A stretch of 32,000 bases of DNA from Candidatus Heimdallarchaeota archaeon (GCA_030614005.1 JAUWKS010000030.1:1-32000), one strand, 5' to 3'; shown: positions 12,820 through 21,888, counted from the first letter of the stretch. The notes: generated by a model not told the origin, from the sequence alone. Made by a program: numbers and translations.

Positions 12820-13935
12820 TTATTTTTTTATTGATGCTTGAGCAATTTTTTGGAAACCCATTGCATTAGCCATTACTGGATCTTCTGGAACGATAACCTC
12901 GTCTGGTGTGTGTACGATATTATGTTCTGTAAGAATGGTTTTCATGTTTTTACCAAAAACTTCAGCGCCACCACCAGTTAGAATTACTTTTTCTATCCAT
13001 GCATCGGGTGGTAAAGTGCCCAGAAGAGTTGAAACCTCATCTACAATGATATCAGCGATTGTATTTACATAATAATCAGTTGTTTCAGAGATATCGTATT
13101 GTTCTCCTGCTATCATAACGTTTTTGCGACCAATTTCTATTGCTTTTATCAATTCGAATGGTCGTAGAATTTTTCCTGTTTGCTTATTGAGATTGTCGGC
13201 TATTCTCCCTGCAAGAGTTGTTATCGATTCGTGGACACTTCCACTGGCTGTTCTCATTAATCTTCCTTCATACACTGTAAGAATATTTGTTGCGCCTGCA
13301 CCTATATCAATAACTATAGCATCCACAGCTCTATCTTCCCCTGATGTCTTCAAGATTTCATAATAAGAACCATAACAGACTGGCATAACTAAACATTGGT
13401 CAATCTTTAGTTTGATTTGTTTTTCTTCACCAGAAGCATCATTAGCGACATTAATTGTCATGGCGCCTTTCATACCAGAGCTAAGTGTTGTCATTTCTTC
13501 TTGAGAACTTGCGACAGGTACACCGGTTGCAATCACAAAGTTAGCATAATCTTTTTCCACAAAATTCGATAAAGCCGCTTGCATTGCTATTATTGCATCC
13601 TTCAAGCTTTTCATTTTTCCATCTGCAGCCAGCGGTCGCTTGATTTCACTTTGAAGTCTAGCTAGTTCACCGACAAAGAATTTCTTTCCTGCATCTGTTG
13701 TTAGAACAAGATTATTTATCCACGATTTGTCAGTTCCTAATCCTTTCCATCCTGGGTTTGGATCGCCTACAAGGCTAGGAATTTTTATTTCCTTTTTTCC
13801 ATCGGGACCAACCAGTTTTATTAAACTAGTTCCTAGATCAATGCCAATTGCCATCGGATTGCCTGTATCTTTAGCTTTCGATTTAGATTTATCTTTTGAT
13901 TTAGCTTTAGCTTTTTGTTTAGATTTTTTAGACAA
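12820..13935 (-). CDS. Actin-like protein of the ParM/StbA (Ta0583-like) type
   Basis: Phosphate-1 IGIDLGTSLIK, phosphate-2 VIDIGAGATN, adenosine motif VILTGGGA, connect-2 MANAMGF. AGGGTGA RBS precedes TTG 13935. The longer ORF-track start overlaps the upstream gene. Confidence 0.88.
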   Translation of the reverse strand: MSKKSKQKAKAKSKDKSKSKAKDTGNPMAIGIDLGTSLIKLVGPDGKKEIKIPSLVGDPNPGWKGLGTDKSWINNLVLTTDAGKKFFVGELARLQSEIKRPLAADGKMKSLKDAIIAMQAALSNFVEKDYANFVIATGVPVASSQEEMTTLSSGMKGAMTINVANDASGEEKQIKLKIDQCLVMPVCYGSYYEILKTSGEDRAVDAIVIDIGAGATNILTVYEGRLMRTASGSVHESITTLAGRIADNLNKQTGKILRPFELIKAIEIGRKNVMIAGEQYDISETTDYYVNTIADIIVDEVSTLLGTLPPDAWIEKVILTGGGAEVFGKNMKTILTEHNIVHTPDEVIVPEDPVMANAMGFQKIAQASIKK

Positions 13936-14026
13936 AATTTTCACCCTAGTTTTTAGAAGGAATAATTTCCTTATATAGGTATAAAAAAAGCATTTTAAAT
14001 ACTTTCTAGTCTGGACATGAGAGAGT

Positions 14027-15376
14027 TTATTCCAGTTGCGGACTAGCTCCCGCATGTATATCAGCATCTGTTTTGTTCTCTTCTTGTGTATCTTCCTTGA
14101 TTGTGTGGATAACTTTACCCGCATTAGCTCTTTCGCCTATTTTTTTAGCTGCTCTTCTTTGTATTGCTTGAACAATTAATCCCATCACCATAAAGAAAAT
14201 AGCTAATGGAATTAAAACTAGCATTATCATTTCAGGTTGCCCTGCTTCGACGCTGTTTATTATTGAATCTGGAAGATTAAGAACTCTCAGTACTGGTACG
14301 GGATTTAATGCTAAATAAGACATAAAAAGCAAAGTAACCATTCTGAACAGTGTTCCAGATAGTACTATCAAGAATAATCTCATTAATGAAGGTGTATAAG
14401 CAGATGCCGAGAGAGAGACCGAGATGAATGGATCATTTTCCTCTAATCTCAAATAATAATTCTTCAGTCGATTGTTCATTTTATCCCAATCTTCTAATGG
14501 TGAAATCCTAAAGAGTTTCTGACCAACTAAAGCTCTTATTTGTGAGAATGCAGTAGTTACTTTCAATAATGATGTTGATGTTTTCTTTCCTTTAACCATT
14601 ATTGATTCTTCTTCTTCTATTTGCTTCTTCTCTCCAATTGGCATCTTAAAATCCTTAAGTCGTTTAATGTTGCTTGATATTCTACGATGTCTTTGAACAT
14701 TTGGTCCAATAACGTTATAGATATAGCTAGCCTGGAAGCTTAACTCAAGTGAGAAATAAATAAGAAATGCAGTAATAACCATTTTTGAGAAAATCATTTG
14801 GAAAAAGTTTCCACTTGAAAAGTCAAGATTTAGTAATAATTTTCCATTCATAGCTGCAATGCCTAATACTATATTCATCGAGAAAAAGGATATTGCTGAT
14901 AGTGCTGGATTGCATTCCTTCAAAAATCCCACTCCAGACACAAATGCAATAATGATTGCTATCATAATAGTAAATGCAAATGCTGCATCTATGAGGCTTT
15001 GTTGTTGCGGAAGCTGTAATGGTTGAGTAACCAATTCTTCGATTGGAATACCTAATACAGTTTCATTTCCGCCGAAAATTGCAACATGAATTGCACTCAT
15101 AATTGCTACTGCCCCTGTATCACCATACCCTAGAATTAGGGCAATTCCATACCCTACAAGCAGGAACAATAGTTCGAATAGAAAGATAAACATCTTCAAC
15201 CCATACCAAAATGATTGGAATCGCCAAATGGTAGGATCAACTGAAGTCATTACCAAAACAAAAGCAGCCACTGACACTAGCCCTGCAAATATTCTTGCTG
15301 AACCTAACAATGTTCTCATTTTTCGTACTCGTTCATTTTCTACTCGTAAGCTTATAGATTGTTCAGACAAGTCCAA
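14027..15376 (-). CDS. Polytopic membrane protein of the MoxR/DUF58 cluster
   Basis: Many hydrophobic segments and a charged central loop. The start overlaps the DUF58 stop and follows AGGAGG (TTG 15376 or 15370). Confidence 0.8.
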   Translation of the reverse strand: MDLSEQSISLRVENERVRKMRTLLGSARIFAGLVSVAAFVLVMTSVDPTIWRFQSFWYGLKMFIFLFELLFLLVGYGIALILGYGDTGAVAIMSAIHVAIFGGNETVLGIPIEELVTQPLQLPQQQSLIDAAFAFTIMIAIIIAFVSGVGFLKECNPALSAISFFSMNIVLGIAAMNGKLLLNLDFSSGNFFQMIFSKMVITAFLIYFSLELSFQASYIYNVIGPNVQRHRRISSNIKRLKDFKMPIGEKKQIEEEESIMVKGKKTSTSLLKVTTAFSQIRALVGQKLFRISPLEDWDKMNNRLKNYYLRLEENDPFISVSLSASAYTPSLMRLFLIVLSGTLFRMVTLLFMSYLALNPVPVLRVLNLPDSIINSVEAGQPEMIMLVLIPLAIFFMVMGLIVQAIQRRAAKKIGERANAGKVIHTIKEDTQEENKTDADIHAGASPQLE

Positions 15377-16766
15377 TGCCCCTCCTTTTTGCGTCAATAT
15401 ATTCGTTGATAACTGTAACTAAGAAATCATCTGGGCCCACAGAGATCACCCCAGCACGATATCTTTGTATATCTTTCCCAAGCCTTCTACGTATTTCATA
15501 ATACTCTTCAGCGATAGCTTCTCCTAATGCTCTTTCAGTAGGTCCGAGTCGAGTATTTTGTATTTCGAAGAATGGACCAAAAGGTGAAATAACTATTACA
15601 TCGAAACCCACTGCAGATGCTTTTCGAATTCCACTAAGAATATCTTTTACGCTACCTTCAAGGTCAGAAATAATAATTAGCAATCCTCTACTTCTTGTTC
15701 TCATAATCAAATTTTGTACAGCATTTGTGAGATTTGAAGGACCTCTTGGTGTGACATATGCAAGGTCTTCTAAAATTCTATTTAAATGTGATGAACCTTG
15801 TTTAGGAGCTATAAACGTATTTACTTTACTATCATAGGTTGCAATTCCTATCAAATCTTTTCTTTCAGAAGCCATATGTGCTAATAATACTACGGCTCGA
15901 ATGCTAAACTCTAGTTTCGTGTTTCGAATTAAGCCTTGTTCCATACTTTGTGATGTATCTAGTAAAACCATTACTCGAACATTTTTTTCTGTTTCAAATT
16001 CCCTAATTTGTAATTTATTTGTTCTACTGAAAGCTTTCCAATCAATATGTCTGAAAGCATCTTCTGGATAATAATCTCGAATGCCCCAGAAATCCATTCC
16101 TGTTCCTTTTAATTTTGTTTTATGGATACCAAAGATTTTCCCTAATTGCCTCTTTGCACCTAATGTTTTCAATTTAGCAATATCTTCATATGATGGATAG
16201 ACTAAGACTTCATCATAATCTTGTTTGACTACCGCTTCTTCATAAAAACCAAGGCGGTCATGTATAATCACTTTTGTTGGACCTATTTTATATAGTCCTC
16301 GAACTGGAGTTCTCACAATATATGAAAAGTCTACTTTTGCGCCGGCATTCAATCTAGTATAAAGGTAATTTTCTCCAAGAACCAAATCCATTGCCTCGGG
16401 GTATGCGTCATATATTTCTAAATGATCTATGGCATTTGGTGCACCATTTTTTACCGTTATTTTTACGTGAATGTAGTCTCCTGCAAAGCATTTTCGTTTT
16501 TCGAGTACTCTATGTACTTGTATTCCTTCGGTGTTTGCTTGGATTCTGAAAATCGGATATCCAAATGTTGTGCCGATAACCATTAAAATTCCAATTAATA
16601 GAAAATAGGTGACAATGACATCTGGAATAGGATAGATTACTTGTTGTAATGTGAAATAGGCTATGATATCAAATATAGGACTTATGCCTTCAAAGGCTAG
16701 TCCTACTGAAATCATAAACATACCTCCGAAAAGGATAAACGATCCTCGTTTGGAAATCATTTTCAA
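15363..16766 (-). CDS. DUF58 domain protein (membrane-anchored, Ig-like plus VWA domain)
   Basis: Two N-terminal TM helices, RGLYKIGP...DRLGF, VLVYP, F.GIRDY.PED..R.IDWKA, and a VWA MIDAS motif LLDTSQSM...IISD. Confidence 0.92.
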   Translation of the reverse strand: MKMISKRGSFILFGGMFMISVGLAFEGISPIFDIIAYFTLQQVIYPIPDVIVTYFLLIGILMVIGTTFGYPIFRIQANTEGIQVHRVLEKRKCFAGDYIHVKITVKNGAPNAIDHLEIYDAYPEAMDLVLGENYLYTRLNAGAKVDFSYIVRTPVRGLYKIGPTKVIIHDRLGFYEEAVVKQDYDEVLVYPSYEDIAKLKTLGAKRQLGKIFGIHKTKLKGTGMDFWGIRDYYPEDAFRHIDWKAFSRTNKLQIREFETEKNVRVMVLLDTSQSMEQGLIRNTKLEFSIRAVVLLAHMASERKDLIGIATYDSKVNTFIAPKQGSSHLNRILEDLAYVTPRGPSNLTNAVQNLIMRTRSRGLLIIISDLEGSVKDILSGIRKASAVGFDVIVISPFGPFFEIQNTRLGPTERALGEAIAEEYYEIRRRLGKDIQRYRAGVISVGPDDFLVTVINEYIDAKRRGIGLV

Positions 16767-16817: not shown

Positions 16818-17852
16818 TTATCTCGTTTCTCTTATTGGAATATCTCTGATAATGTCTTTCACAATTGTTTGTGAAGTTATGCCTTCCAAATCTGCTTCAG
16901 GTTTTAAGATAAGTCGATGGTAAACAGACCCTACTACTATTCTTTTGATGTCATCTGGTACAACGAAATCACGACCGCATATTGCAGCATAAGCTTTCGA
17001 AGCGCTCAGCATAGCGATACTTGCTCGAGGACTTCCTCCAAGAATCAATCTCGGATCTGTTCGTGTTCTCATTGTAACATCACGAATATATTCGATTATT
17101 CCTTGATCTACAAAAACACCATCTCTGACTGTCTTCTGTAATCTAACTATTGTTTCAGCAGTAGTTATCTCTTGTATTTGGCTCTCAACAGGTCGATGTT
17201 TTAATTGAATGATTTTTTCTTCTTCAGCTGCATTTGGTAATCCAACTACTGATTTCATCAAAAATCTATCAAGTTGAGCCTCCGGTAAAGGATACGTTCC
17301 TTCTTGTTCGATAGGATTCTGTGTAGCAATAACAATGAAAGGCGAGGAAAGAACATAGGTGTTTCCTTCTATCGATACTTGTCTTTCAGCCATTGCTTCA
17401 AGAAGAGCGCTCTGTGTTTTTGGTGGAGCTCTGTTTATTTCATCAGCTAAGAGGATATTTGTGAAAATTGGTCCTCTTCTTAATTTAAAAGTACCAGACC
17501 TTTGGTCAAAGATATTTGTTCCTAAAACATCAGAAGGAAGTAAATCAGGGGTAAATTGTACTCTCTTGTACTTGCACCCTAATGTTTTTGCAAACAGTTT
17601 TGCTAAAGTAGTTTTAGCAATTCCAGGTACTCCTTCAAGCAAAATGTGTCCATCACATAATAAACTGATCATTAAGTTTTGAACAACATTTTTCATGCCA
17701 ATAATGTGTTTCGAAAGTTCGTCTTGAATACTCTTAGATATTCTTTCTACATCGGATATATCCACTAACCCTCCTGCGGGTCCAGAAACAATTTTTTCTG
17801 TAGGGGGAGGGGGTGGTGGTGCAAACTCAGACATTTTTTTTACATACCCCAT
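16818..17852 (-). CDS. MoxR-family AAA+ ATPase
   Basis: GHILLEGVPGIAKT (Walker A), RVQFTPDLLPSDV, LLADEINRAPPKTQSALLEAM (Walker B), ATQNPIEQEGTYPLPEAQLDRF, SPRAS. Confidence 0.96.
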   Translation of the reverse strand: MGYVKKMSEFAPPPPPPTEKIVSGPAGGLVDISDVERISKSIQDELSKHIIGMKNVVQNLMISLLCDGHILLEGVPGIAKTTLAKLFAKTLGCKYKRVQFTPDLLPSDVLGTNIFDQRSGTFKLRRGPIFTNILLADEINRAPPKTQSALLEAMAERQVSIEGNTYVLSSPFIVIATQNPIEQEGTYPLPEAQLDRFLMKSVVGLPNAAEEEKIIQLKHRPVESQIQEITTAETIVRLQKTVRDGVFVDQGIIEYIRDVTMRTRTDPRLILGGSPRASIAMLSASKAYAAICGRDFVVPDDIKRIVVGSVYHRLILKPEADLEGITSQTIVKDIIRDIPIRETR

Positions 17853-17869: not shown

Positions 17870-19369
17870 TTAATATCGTGATCTAGGTTTAGTTATTATT
17901 TCTTCAATATTCTTCATCTCTAATACTAGAGCAAGGAAATCTTCCTCTGTAATCTTCTTTTTCTTTTCAGTAAATAGTTCTATACTTTTGAGGCTCTTCA
18001 AAAGAAGATTATAATTGAATTTCCCAGGATATTGTTCTTCAAGCAAATCCACAATCTGAGTGAAATTAATATCCAATCCGGAATTAAATTTCTTATCAAG
18101 TCTTCTTTTCAAACGTTTATACAGAACATTCAACGCTTTATCATATTGCTCATAATTAACATACCAGGACATTTTTGCTGCAAAGAATGATCGAGATCTT
18201 TTTTGTTTAATTTTTGTCATTAATAATGGAGACGCACCTCGACTTTTTGGATAGTTACGTCTAAGAAAAATTAAAGCTATAATTGGGAAAAATGGTGCTA
18301 ATAATGGAAACATTGTAAATGAATTGATATAGCGTAAATACATGCTCACATAGCTAAAGGGATCCAAAACACTCAAAGCTGCTCGGCCTTTGGAAGGTGA
18401 AAGATGCCCTTCATCATAAAAAATAGTTCTTGAACCATTAATATCCAACCAATTAAATAGATTACTTGCATATTGAGCATTGTCATATTGTGACATACTC
18501 ATTAGCTCGTTGATGAAAATACTGGGATCGGCACAAATCAAGATGTTACCCAATCCTACTGCACCCAAAGGCAAAGGAACCATAAGAGAGAATGATACTC
18601 CTCTCCACTCGTCTTCATCTGGTTGGAACTCACCATTTCTCGCTTTTTCAATATCCTTTTCTAACCAACTTACTGGAGTGCTATAAGCAATTCCAGAAGG
18701 AATTGGTTGCCCGGCAATTGAAAAGGAAGGAATCCATCGAGTCGTACCCCTCTCTGCATCATAAGCTAAAAAGCTTACTGCTGATGGATAACTTGTAACT
18801 ACTTGAGTAACACCAGCGATAGAAGGCAATCCAGGCGCACTAATGAAATTCTTAATTACGGGCATAGCAGGTGTTTGATGATATGACTCATAGTCCATTA
18901 GCAATGATTTGTTTATTTTCACTCCTTGAAGTGGAACACCGCCAATACCTAGTCCTGAAAGGTCAATATTCTCGAGAAACGGTGCAATTATTACATTAAT
19001 AAGGCCAAGAATGTCATTCGCACTTCCAAAATCATCTGCTATTAATACACTTCCACCTCTCATTATGAAATAAGCTAAAGCTGCTGTTTCTGTTGGGTCG
19101 AAAAATATTGTTGGACCCACAAGAGCTAATACACCCAAATTATCTATTCGTGTCAGTGTATTCAATGTCGAAACAATAGGTTGGAATTCATATCCTTCGC
19201 TTTCTAAATTTTCTTTCAGAATACTTGTACCATCCCAGTTAGTATTATAAATCGAAAACTGGCGAGTTTCTTCTATTCCTAATCTCGTAACTGATAAAAC
19301 GATTGGCAAACAAAATATGATAAACAATATTGATAACATGAATGCATTTCTATCAAATTTTCTAGCCAT
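17870..19369 (-). CDS. DUF4350-type membrane-anchored protein
   Basis: N-terminal TM helix, FSIYNTNWDGTS, GGSVLIADDFG, ADPSIFIN..M, IFYDEGH, second TM helix near the C-terminus, and position directly upstream of MoxR. Confidence 0.82.
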   Translation of the reverse strand: MARKFDRNAFMLSILFIIFCLPIVLSVTRLGIEETRQFSIYNTNWDGTSILKENLESEGYEFQPIVSTLNTLTRIDNLGVLALVGPTIFFDPTETAALAYFIMRGGSVLIADDFGSANDILGLINVIIAPFLENIDLSGLGIGGVPLQGVKINKSLLMDYESYHQTPAMPVIKNFISAPGLPSIAGVTQVVTSYPSAVSFLAYDAERGTTRWIPSFSIAGQPIPSGIAYSTPVSWLEKDIEKARNGEFQPDEDEWRGVSFSLMVPLPLGAVGLGNILICADPSIFINELMSMSQYDNAQYASNLFNWLDINGSRTIFYDEGHLSPSKGRAALSVLDPFSYVSMYLRYINSFTMFPLLAPFFPIIALIFLRRNYPKSRGASPLLMTKIKQKRSRSFFAAKMSWYVNYEQYDKALNVLYKRLKRRLDKKFNSGLDINFTQIVDLLEEQYPGKFNYNLLLKSLKSIELFTEKKKKITEEDFLALVLEMKNIEEIITKPRSRY

Positions 19370-19407: not shown

Positions 19408-21888
19408 TTATCTTTGTTCTTGTGGTGCTGGGCCTTTCTCTATTGCAAGCTGAATGTTATGTAAAGCTTGTCTTGCTTGTGTGTAAGAGTTCTTTGTAAT
19501 CTTATGATCACTAAATCGAGCTTCTTCAAATCGCATAACAAGCATAGTAACGTCTCTCACAGGGACTCTGTTAGTTGAAGCAATTATACGTGCAAGCTCT
19601 CTGGGAGAAAGTGAAGGTGCATTTATTATACCGAAATTCGACATACAAATTGACTCAAATGCACGATAACAAAGAGTTGAAGCTCGTTTGAAATCTTTCG
19701 CATTTTCAGATTCATCAATTAGCTTCAATATTGTATTTAGGTCGTATTGATCGACCCCTACAGCCATTCCAGGTCGTTTCTTTGACTTTCTGAATCGACC
19801 GAATGCATAAACAGATGATACTATTATTATTCCAGATACCATAGCTATTAATATTCCAATCAATATAGGTCCCAAATTAGTGCCTCCAGGCAGTGATGAC
19901 GTACTCACACTTGTATCAGTATTAGTAGGTGTAGGATGTACTTGAAAGTTAACTCTAAAACTAAAGTCGATATTTTCCTTAAAGGTTATCGTTACAGTAT
20001 AATCAGTATTTGTTAATAAAGTTTCATCCCCAAAGAATAAATAACTAAAATCACCTATGCTTGATAGAGTTATAGTAGTGATTCCAAGGGATTCAAATGT
20101 TATGTTGACAGTTCTATCCGTAATCGGTCTATCAAATTGATCCGTTAAAGTTGCTTGGAGAGTAAAAGTGGAATTATTATATAGCGGATTGCCACCAATC
20201 GAACTATAACCTGCATCTTCAATAACATTTGAAGAATTAATTGTAGCAGCAAAATTGACTGTTGTGAAAATATCAAGAGTGTAACTTGTATTAGAAGAAT
20301 CAAAGTAAGTGGTTGCCAATGCTTCTATATTTATTGCCCACTGGCTAACTATAGCTGTAAATGAAAGTGGAACTGCCATTAAAATAGTAAATGTACCAGT
20401 TGCAGAAGTATTACTATTATATACTGGTCCAGTGACGTCCCATTGAGCTGTTATAGACATCCCCTCAATTACTCTATTATCATAATTATCTCGCATTGTA
20501 CCAGTTACTTCAATAGACTCACCAGGCATGACCATAAAAGCTTCTGTAAAAACATCAGTATTATTTACTTCTGAATTTAGTACTGTTGAATTTCCAACAA
20601 CGGTAAGAATTTTGTATTCAGTTACCGCACTTATTCCCTGCCCTGTAGCAACATCCACCCAAATAGTATTGTCACCTACTGGAAGATAAGTTCCAGAAAC
20701 GACGAAAGTCGAATTAAATAGACCAGTACCCCCAGCAGCTATTGTAGTGGCTTGTAATGTTGTTGCTGTTTGTGTGGTACCTTGATCCACATAAATCTCA
20801 AGATCAACATCTGAGACATAGGGATTTCCAAACGAATCTTCTATTAAGCCAGATATTGTAACACTTGTTTCATTGCGGAGAATTACTGGATCCGCTCCAG
20901 GACCAGATGTTGCCGGATCGTCGATTGAAAAAGTAATTCCAGCACCAGAAAAGACAGTTATATTCACAGTTTCATTTGCCCAATCTGCAGCAGGAGTACC
21001 AATTAAAGCCTCATTTCTAATATCACCTACAACGTAGGAAAGTCCTAGAAGACTAACATTAAATGACCCTTCTAAAGCATGTTGAGTTAATGGGGTCGCA
21101 AGGGGAACGTTAAATGTTGTATTTGTTATTAAACTTACAATTGTATCAGTATATGTAGATCCTAACCATTCAAAACTAATATCTTCTCCATTAGACTCAG
21201 GAACAACAGGCAAAGGATCGCTGTCATAGTATAGCAACCCAGCAATTGCAAAGAAATCCTCTTGCTCACGTACAAGTGTTGTATTTGTAGACATACCCAT
21301 GTAGATACTTGCATAACAGTCCACACTTTCTGAGATAGCTTGTCGATTATCTTCGATAGGACCTAAGAATGGGTCACCAGGAAAGACAGTATAAACAGTT
21401 ACTACACCAAAATCTTTTGAGTAATCTATATCACGACAAGTAACTGAAAAATCACCATTGCTATCTGTTCGATCTTCACCGATTAGATAGTCATTCTTTA
21501 AACCTTCTTGATCTGCTTCATAAGCAGCCCAAGAAAAAGTTGACCAGAAAATCTCAATTGGTTCATCTGACCACCCTACACCAGTTCCTGGGTCTTCTAA
21601 ACGACCAGTTACTATAAATGAATTTCCTCTAATAATAACTGTAGGAATTATAGTTTTTGGTGAAAAATAATTATCTTGGGGTAAGCTTTTTTCTTCAAGT
21701 CGAGGATTTATTATCTCTGCATTGAGTGACGTTTCAATCAAGGATGGTTTGTTTATGACAACCTGTGAATCGTCTTTAGAATTACCTATATAATTAGCAA
21801 CTGAATAAGATACGCTCACAATTACAATAAAGATAATTGTAACTACTTTCAAGCTAGCTTTATTCCGACTCAAGTTGAACATCACCAA
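19408..21888 (-). CDS. Large surface protein with Ig-like domains, a TM helix and a C-terminal DUF4129 domain
   Basis: N-terminal hydrophobic helix, long Thr/Val/Gly-rich beta-type region, Thr/Ser linker, TM helix, and C-terminal SPRELA...LVMRFEEARFSDH.IT, typical of DUF4129. Confidence 0.82.
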   Translation of the reverse strand: MVMFNLSRNKASLKVVTIIFIVIVSVSYSVANYIGNSKDDSQVVINKPSLIETSLNAEIINPRLEEKSLPQDNYFSPKTIIPTVIIRGNSFIVTGRLEDPGTGVGWSDEPIEIFWSTFSWAAYEADQEGLKNDYLIGEDRTDSNGDFSVTCRDIDYSKDFGVVTVYTVFPGDPFLGPIEDNRQAISESVDCYASIYMGMSTNTTLVREQEDFFAIAGLLYYDSDPLPVVPESNGEDISFEWLGSTYTDTIVSLITNTTFNVPLATPLTQHALEGSFNVSLLGLSYVVGDIRNEALIGTPAADWANETVNITVFSGAGITFSIDDPATSGPGADPVILRNETSVTISGLIEDSFGNPYVSDVDLEIYVDQGTTQTATTLQATTIAAGGTGLFNSTFVVSGTYLPVGDNTIWVDVATGQGISAVTEYKILTVVGNSTVLNSEVNNTDVFTEAFMVMPGESIEVTGTMRDNYDNRVIEGMSITAQWDVTGPVYNSNTSATGTFTILMAVPLSFTAIVSQWAINIEALATTYFDSSNTSYTLDIFTTVNFAATINSSNVIEDAGYSSIGGNPLYNNSTFTLQATLTDQFDRPITDRTVNITFESLGITTITLSSIGDFSYLFFGDETLLTNTDYTVTITFKENIDFSFRVNFQVHPTPTNTDTSVSTSSLPGGTNLGPILIGILIAMVSGIIIVSSVYAFGRFRKSKKRPGMAVGVDQYDLNTILKLIDESENAKDFKRASTLCYRAFESICMSNFGIINAPSLSPRELARIIASTNRVPVRDVTMLVMRFEEARFSDHKITKNSYTQARQALHNIQLAIEKGPAPQEQR

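Follow-up and report, generated by a model that had tools for sequence, protein, structure and literature searches.

A natural, probably hydrolysis-impaired paralog of ParM/Ta0583-type actin-like proteins beside a MoxR/vWA gene cluster in Heimdallarchaeia

A stretch of 32,000 nucleotides from a Candidatus Heimdallarchaeota archaeon (JAUWKS010000030.1:1-32000; hereafter the window) encodes an actin-like protein with valine at the position of the catalytic glutamate or glutamine. As far as can be judged from sequence, this Val-type protein is probably a lineage-specific pseudo-ATPase paralog that is maintained by selection, is impaired in hydrolysis, and may work at or scaffold the membrane complex of a MoxR cluster encoded next to it.

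The product of the Val-type gene is a ParM/Ta0583-type actin-like protein. It matches the Pfam domains ALP_N (PF17989; 1.8e-13, 51.4 bits against a cut-off of 26.3) and MreB-like_C, the Ta0583-type C-terminal domain (PF21522; 1e-14, 55.6 bits against a cut-off of 27.8). The only NCBIfam matches, to ParM, PRTRC-D, FcmB and MamK, were below threshold. The AF2 model of the protein (pLDDT 92.7, pTM 0.90) was matched best by Ta0583 in Foldseek (E 5e-22, TM 0.77-0.84), with Dh-cParM1, BtParM, CorM, Alp7A and pCBH ParM among the further top matches. When the family profile was compared with solved structures, pCBH ParM, Dh-cParM1, CorM, Ta0583 and MamK were found. Homologs come nearly all from Asgard archaea, in Heimdall-, Loki-, Hel-, Njord- and Thor-labelled MAGs. 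Our search of the literature, which does not prove absence, found no description of an Asgard ParM-like family or of the valine variant.

Residues are numbered here from the MAIGIDLG methionine (sequence P0001), which makes the valine residue 159; the ORF that starts there spans 12820..13854 on the minus strand. In several orthologs this methionine is replaced by Leu, Lys or Ile, and an upstream alignment of nine orthologous loci revealed a conserved start, TTG-TCY-AAA-AAA (M-S-K-K), at window position 13935. The gene is therefore placed at 12820..13935 (Table 1), and the conserved TTG is most likely, from this alignment, its true start. The longest ORF, of 434 aa from 14124, was rejected as a gene model because it runs into the gene upstream and because the orthologs begin at the conserved TTG. 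The N-terminal tail is about 19 residues longer than in most orthologs and is built from low-complexity codons of the AAA/GCT/TCT type. Its long K-rich stretch is an expansion common only to the nearest relatives (G072, P0002). The C-terminus is also basic, with IKK here and KKKK in orthologs. Upstream of the start, the alignment of nine orthologous intergenic regions (region 13942..14005) contains two conserved elements that appear to be a promoter-like box and an SD-like element of the actin-like gene.

Table 1. Features of the Val-type gene and its neighbourhood (window coordinates).
Feature	Position	Strand	Remarks
Actin-like (ParM/Ta0583-type) gene, Val-type paralog	12820..13935	-	371 aa from conserved TTG; 344 aa from MAIGIDLG at 13854
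Val159 codon (GTC)	13378..13380	-	catalytic Glu/Gln position, start of connect-1 helix
Cys160 codon	13375..13377	-	family-invariant Pro replaced; PEP to PVC
Phosphate-1 loop D6-K13, DLGTSLIK	13816..13839	-	conserved residues kept
Phosphate-2 loop D183-N190, DIGAGATN	13285..13308	-	family sequence DIGHGSTD
Segment S210-A215	13210..13227	-	A210S; D212 now variable; T215A
Adenosine motif G294-E298, GGGAE	12961..12975	-	GGG kept; aromatic Y/H298 to Glu
Lys/Ser-rich N-terminal tail SKKSKQKAKAKSKDKSKSKAKDTGNP	13855..13932	-	SKK start conserved in orthologs
TATA/BRE-like box AAAGTATTTAAAA (AAAGTATTTAA box in orthologs)	13993-14005	-	conserved, ~55 nt upstream of TTG
SD-like GGGTG	13942-13946	-	conserved, 6 nt before TTG
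Multi-pass membrane protein, 456 aa	14027..15397	-	last gene of older module; syntenic in f1, f3
DUF58/vWA-domain protein	15363..16766	-	Pfam DUF58 1.4e-31, VWA_2 3.7e-11
MoxR-type AAA+ ATPase	16818..17852	-	Pfam AAA_3 2e-66, AAA_lid_2
DUF4350 protein (arCOG01314 type)	17870..19369	-	Pfam DUF4350 3.8e-12
826-aa protein, C-terminal DUF4129	19408..21888	-	Pfam DUF4129 6.3e-07; first gene of cluster

The catalytic position of ParM is Glu-148, which positions the catalytic water, is equivalent to actin Gln-137 and lies at a strand/helix junction (PMC3794156). The original prediction had placed valine at this position, and the register bears it out. The Val159 codon, which reads gac on the plus strand, lies inside CAATGTTTAGTTATGCCAGTCTGTTATGGT, encoding Q-C-L-V-M-P-V-C-Y-G (residue context LVMPVCYGSYY). 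HMM alignments to solved structures set V159 opposite the glutamate of CorM (VMPEGYGS) and the glutamine of Ta0583 (RPQGVG), pCBH ParM (FPQGAG) and Dh-cParM1 (LPQSYG). In the secondary structure of the AF2 model, strand 144-158 passes directly into helix 159-170, which begins with V159 at the junction where ParM and actin have their catalytic residue. By these alignments, valine occupies the catalytic E/Q position of the actin-like fold.

The replacement is fixed in one lineage. Alignment of 121 family members with MAFFT showed PVCYG in 31/31 clusters of close orthologs (73-95% identity) and PEP[YF]G in 90/90 other Asgard members. When 82 genomes of the class were surveyed, the Val type was found in 12/12 genomes of one family, f1, each of which has three paralogs except for the 64%-complete G078, where two were found. 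Families f2 and f3 carry one or two canonical copies, and in four families of the class the survey gave no actin-like match at E 1e-20. A related-locus search of genome contigs returned no Val-type loci among the matches listed; it identified family f3 / genus g7 as Ca. Heimdallarchaeum, with Ca. Heimdallarchaeum endolithica PR6 among the related genomes of the class, so that the genome of the window belongs to Heimdallarchaeia. In the wider ALP family, represented by 136 clusters at 50% identity, 117 representatives have Q and 11 have E at position 159 (128/136 E or Q), and V occurs only in the query. A contig-end fragment in an f3 bin (G010:C26:1-441) is 86% identical to Val-type residues 196-342 and stops short of position 159; this bin otherwise contains the canonical type only, and the fragment is probably a binning contaminant. 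Five metagenomic sequences close to the Asgard family (P0125, P0126, P0129, P0131 and P0134) have S, G, S, S and K, respectively, at the catalytic position, some of them also with altered phosphate-2 ends. Across these sequences, catalytic residues seem to have been lost several times in the Asgard-related actin-like family.

The loss extends beyond position 159. The core hydrolysis motif of MreB is E...T-X-[D/E], formed in CcMreB by E140, T167 and E169, of which the first corresponds to Q137 and the last to H161 of actin (Takahashi et al., PMC9597168). The spacing of the MreB sequence D-I-G-G-G-T-T-E matches that of D-I-G-H-G-S-T-D in the present family, with S188 at the place of CcMreB T167 and D190 at that of E169. 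The family motif is therefore E159...S188-T189-D190. In the Val clade it reads V159...A188-T189-N190, with all three functional residues replaced, and among the 136 ALP representatives this triple loss was found only in the query. The phosphate-2 loop as a whole has changed from DIGHGSTD to DIGAGATN (H186A, S188A, D190N) and no longer has the form D-x-G-x-x-[ST]-x-[DE], just as the Glu or Gln expected after the conserved Pro is missing at Val159. The original prediction had proposed slow or absent hydrolysis from the valine; at the level of sequence the case is stronger than was noted, since the changes at A188, N190 and H186 add to V159.

Could the protein still be a competent ATPase? Hydrolysis would then have to rely on another residue, such as Cys160 or one of an adjacent subunit, or on one that a partner protein contributes in trans. 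Two observations speak for this reading. The nucleotide-binding residues are strictly conserved in the Val clade, so that the pocket is still constrained, and pSK41 ParM has Met at the aligned position and still forms dynamic filaments (PMC4911067); a missing E/Q in a pairwise alignment is therefore no absolute proof of inactivity. Against it, all three residues of E...T-X-[D/E] were lost together, in addition to H186, and no acidic or amide residue has been gained and fixed near the site. The Val-clade sequences were searched for a fixed compensating E/Q near V159, and none was found. Q154 alternates with K inside the clade, and the gained E166 and E298 are located away from the gamma-phosphate side; these candidates were rejected as far as the alignment goes. 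Cys160 is the only polar candidate neighbouring position 159. Single T or D substitutions in SpeMreB5 lowered Pi release at least 5.6-fold, and in the motif-less MreB3 it was unmeasurably slow (PMC9597168). Retained ATPase competence is thus regarded as improbable.

The remainder of the pocket has been kept to a large extent. Both phosphate loops and the adenosine motif had originally been described as intact, which holds for phosphate-1 and for the GGG of the adenosine motif; it does not hold for phosphate-2, nor for the aromatic residue adjoining GGG. Phosphate-1 retains the pattern D-x-G-x-x-x-x-K (DLGTSLIK; Val-clade consensus DLGTS..K). Invariant in all 31 orthologs are D6, G8, T9, S10 and K13 of phosphate-1, D183, G185, G187 and T189 of phosphate-2, and G294-G296 of the adenosine motif; these are residues whose backbone or carboxylate contacts Mg and phosphate. 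The E-type set has 59 invariant positions, and the Val clade departs from it at just six of them: E159V, P160C and D190N in the catalytic motifs, together with A210S, D212 (variable) and E335Q. Compared with the 90 E-type sequences, the fixed clade-specific changes are E159V, P160C, H186A, S188A, D190N, A210S, T215A and Y/H298E, the last of which turns GGGA[Y/H] into GGGAE within LTGGGAEVFG. D212, invariant in the E-type set, has become variable.

Some of these changes bear on nucleotide binding itself. The substitutions Y/H298E and A210S and the relaxed D212 could mean that binding is altered or lost, and a complete loss would leave a purely structural or adaptor protein of the actin fold, polymerising or not. 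A stronger decay of phosphate-2, to ISLDLLTE, is known from other Asgard relatives and would fit such a course. The strict conservation of the phosphate-1, phosphate-2 and GGG residues in 31 orthologs would be unexpected for an unused pocket, and complete loss of binding is judged to be unlikely.

To examine the history of the paralog, an ML tree was computed from 69 sequences. In it the Val-type sequences form a monophyletic clade (SH-aLRT 100), whose sister group (97) is a canonical clade with the paralog on contig C34 of the same genome (61% identical). The stem branch of the Val clade measures 0.48 substitutions per site, compared with 0.18 for the sister. Within the Val clade, dN/dS is 0.02-0.08 (Nei-Gojobori, unsaturated pairs), as in the pair formed by the window's genome (G000) and G072, with dN 0.030 and dS 0.68. 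The median dN of the Val type exceeds that of the canonical sister by a factor of 1.47 for the same genome pairs. In these sequences the record is one of duplication, a burst of change and then strong purifying selection, with no decay. In G081, which alone represents genus g2, the conserved E70 codon (GAG-like) of the Val-type copy has become an in-frame TAG (loci L014/L039, C275:2498-3523). An error in sequencing, a recently formed pseudogene or a site of read-through could each account for it; P0025 is a full-length relative of this copy, 79% identical. Apart from that single stop codon, which would suit a decaying pseudogene or an assembly or sequencing artefact behind the valine, the ORF is intact in 11/12 genomes, the 31 independent clusters, drawn from several data sources, all have the same motif, and the dN/dS values are low, so that this highly improbable reading is effectively refuted.

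The genome of the window contains at least five actin-fold cytoskeletal candidates. The sister paralog (C34:33389-34411; L002:1477-2577) is canonical, with PEPYGSYY and DIGHGSTD; an Arf-family small-GTPase-like gene is encoded near it (L002:1-441; Pfam Arf 8e-07), and no MoxR module adjoins it. A second canonical paralog, 53% identical (C9:11857-12864; L003:1477-2550), has PEPFG and DVGHGSTD and lies downstream of a HypB/CobW GTPase gene. The gene on its 3' side, which overlaps it by about 20 nt, encodes a Lys/Ser/Pro-rich protein of 231 aa without a Pfam match (L003:2528-3223), a purely speculative candidate for an adaptor with a ParR-like role. Two further genes match Pfam Actin (PF00022) above the cut-off (C74:12939-13871 and C82:36862-37968).

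A comparable pair of genes was observed in another Asgard lineage. At locus L102 (G226:C17:19110-23141), a canonical and a degenerate paralog are adjacent and divergent, about 130 nt apart. The canonical copy has VLPEPYG and IDIGHGSTD, and the degenerate copy has IMPQSYG with ISLDLLTE as phosphate-2; this degenerate type is also found in L101, L103 and the Helarchaeota record P0124. The adjacency in G226 is a hint that a pairing of degenerate and canonical ParM-like paralogs may recur.

The Val-type gene is the last of a series on the minus strand, in the order DUF4129, DUF4350, MoxR, DUF58/vWA, membrane (TM) protein and actin-like gene. The gene is directly flanked by the membrane protein gene on its upstream side and, on the other side, by a convergent gene for endonuclease V. 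The order from DUF4350 to the actin-like gene was found in 8/8 f1 genomes with enough contig, between most of which dS is saturated; the locus lies on the chromosome and keeps its synteny from genome to genome. Two f3 (Heimdallarchaeaceae-like) genomes also have the DUF4350-MoxR-DUF58-TM block in synteny, without the actin-like gene. In one of them (G006), the TM gene is succeeded by a convergent gene, and the genome's single canonical actin-like gene is found about 1 Mb from the block; in the other (G002), the examined locus contains no actin-like gene. It follows that the module predates the Val-type gene, which joined its 3' end in f1. With co-oriented genes and membrane-protein partners in eight f1 and two f3 genomes, the series has the make-up of a DUF4350-MoxR-vWA envelope module. 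Clusters of DUF4350 (arCOG01314), MoxR and vWA genes have been predicted to encode a secretion or membrane-remodelling complex (Makarova et al., 2015, PMC5898192); a search for 'actin' in the text of that article found no mention of an actin-like gene. For the 456-aa membrane protein, no Pfam or NCBIfam family was found, and its ESM Atlas matches are nameless Asgard clusters; the remaining module proteins received no NCBIfam name. Three MoxR-type ATPases are encoded in the genome of the window, and only the one in the window is adjoined by an actin-like gene.

How closely are the actin-like gene and the module linked? A gap of 91 nt separates the TM gene from the actin-like gene, and together with the promoter-like box this makes co-transcription with the module uncertain. 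The conserved box suggests that the actin-like gene can be transcribed on its own, and adjacency may reflect co-regulation only. The MoxR ATPase had been proposed as a factor that disassembles the actin-like filament. No evidence for this role was found, and the module occurs in the two f3 genomes without the actin-like gene; the conserved partner of MoxR is therefore the vWA protein. Next to the actin-like gene there is no ParR-type adaptor gene, and the locus does not have the composition of a ParMRC partition system.

The evidence is best accommodated by a selected pseudo-ATPase paralog. A duplication would have taken place in the ancestor of one Heimdallarchaeia family, after which one copy kept E...[S/T]-x-[D/E]. 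The other copy would have evolved fast, acquiring E159V, S188A and D190N as well as H186A, P160C and Y/H298E, before coming under strong purifying selection. Since the pocket residues are invariant in the clade, nucleotide is most likely still bound via the kept Mg- and phosphate-binding residues. The attacking water would be neither positioned nor activated, and hydrolysis would be very slow or absent. In ParM-like filaments hydrolysis destabilises the polymer, and ATP hydrolysis makes actin-like filaments dynamic. The expected outcome would therefore be a stable, non-dynamic homopolymer, or a silent subunit that does not hydrolyse nucleotide and either joins the canonical paralogs in assembly or regulates them. 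The fixed position of the gene directly 3' of the MoxR/vWA cluster suggests a role at the membrane complex encoded upstream, on which the protein may act or which it may scaffold.

A more specific version of this proposal is put forward only tentatively. The Val-type protein might be an obligate non-hydrolysing subunit, either as a permanently stable membrane-tethered filament anchored on the MoxR/vWA complex or as a silent partner of a canonical paralog, comparable to alpha-tubulin or an Arp. If this were true, Heimdallarchaeia would have split catalytic and non-catalytic actin-fold subunits, independently of the eukaryotic Arps. More generally, a natural paralog that lacks the hydrolysis motif, preserves the pocket and is maintained by strong selection offers a test case for the uses of a non-hydrolysing actin-fold protein, and this one comes from the class of archaea that stands closest to eukaryotes. 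It may also provide the first cytoplasmic, cytoskeleton-type handle on the widespread and uncharacterised DUF4350-MoxR-vWA membrane module.

Several known systems can be set beside the Val-type protein. Ta0583 and the ParM/StbA-like ALPs (pCBH ParM, Dh-cParM1, CorM) have the same domain composition, ALP_N with MreB-like_C, and share with it the framework of phosphate-1, phosphate-2 and adenosine motif, Ta0583 with a TM of about 0.8. They differ in having Q/E after Pro and [S/T]-T-D at the end of phosphate-2, where the Val-type protein has V and A-T-N. In contrast to ParM-type systems, the Val-type gene is chromosomal, follows a MoxR/vWA cluster and has no adjoining ParR-like adaptor gene. The same catalytic position has been altered in engineered ParM mutants of Glu-148 and Asp-170. 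Filaments of ParM E148A are stable and lack dynamic instability. Such mutants are laboratory variants of a plasmid-segregation motor, whereas the Val-type protein is natural, fixed and carries further changes in the pocket.

By analogy, the closest tested precedent for the Val-type protein is MreB3 of Spiroplasma, which lacks E...T-X-[D/E], releases Pi unmeasurably slowly and still forms filaments (PMC9597168). Both are lineage-specific paralogs beside canonical copies, and in both all three core hydrolysis residues are replaced; the Val-type protein has V...A-T-N and is accompanied by two canonical paralogs in the same genome (C34, C9). MreB3 belongs to the MreB family and to another domain of life, with the substitutions D/K/S instead of V/A/N and with a different genomic context. 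The DUF4350-MoxR-vWA neighbourhoods described in archaea (PMC5898192) have the same core genes and represent the same kind of cluster as the window. What distinguishes the window from them is an actin-like gene fixed at the 3' end of the cluster, in a single family of Heimdallarchaeia only.
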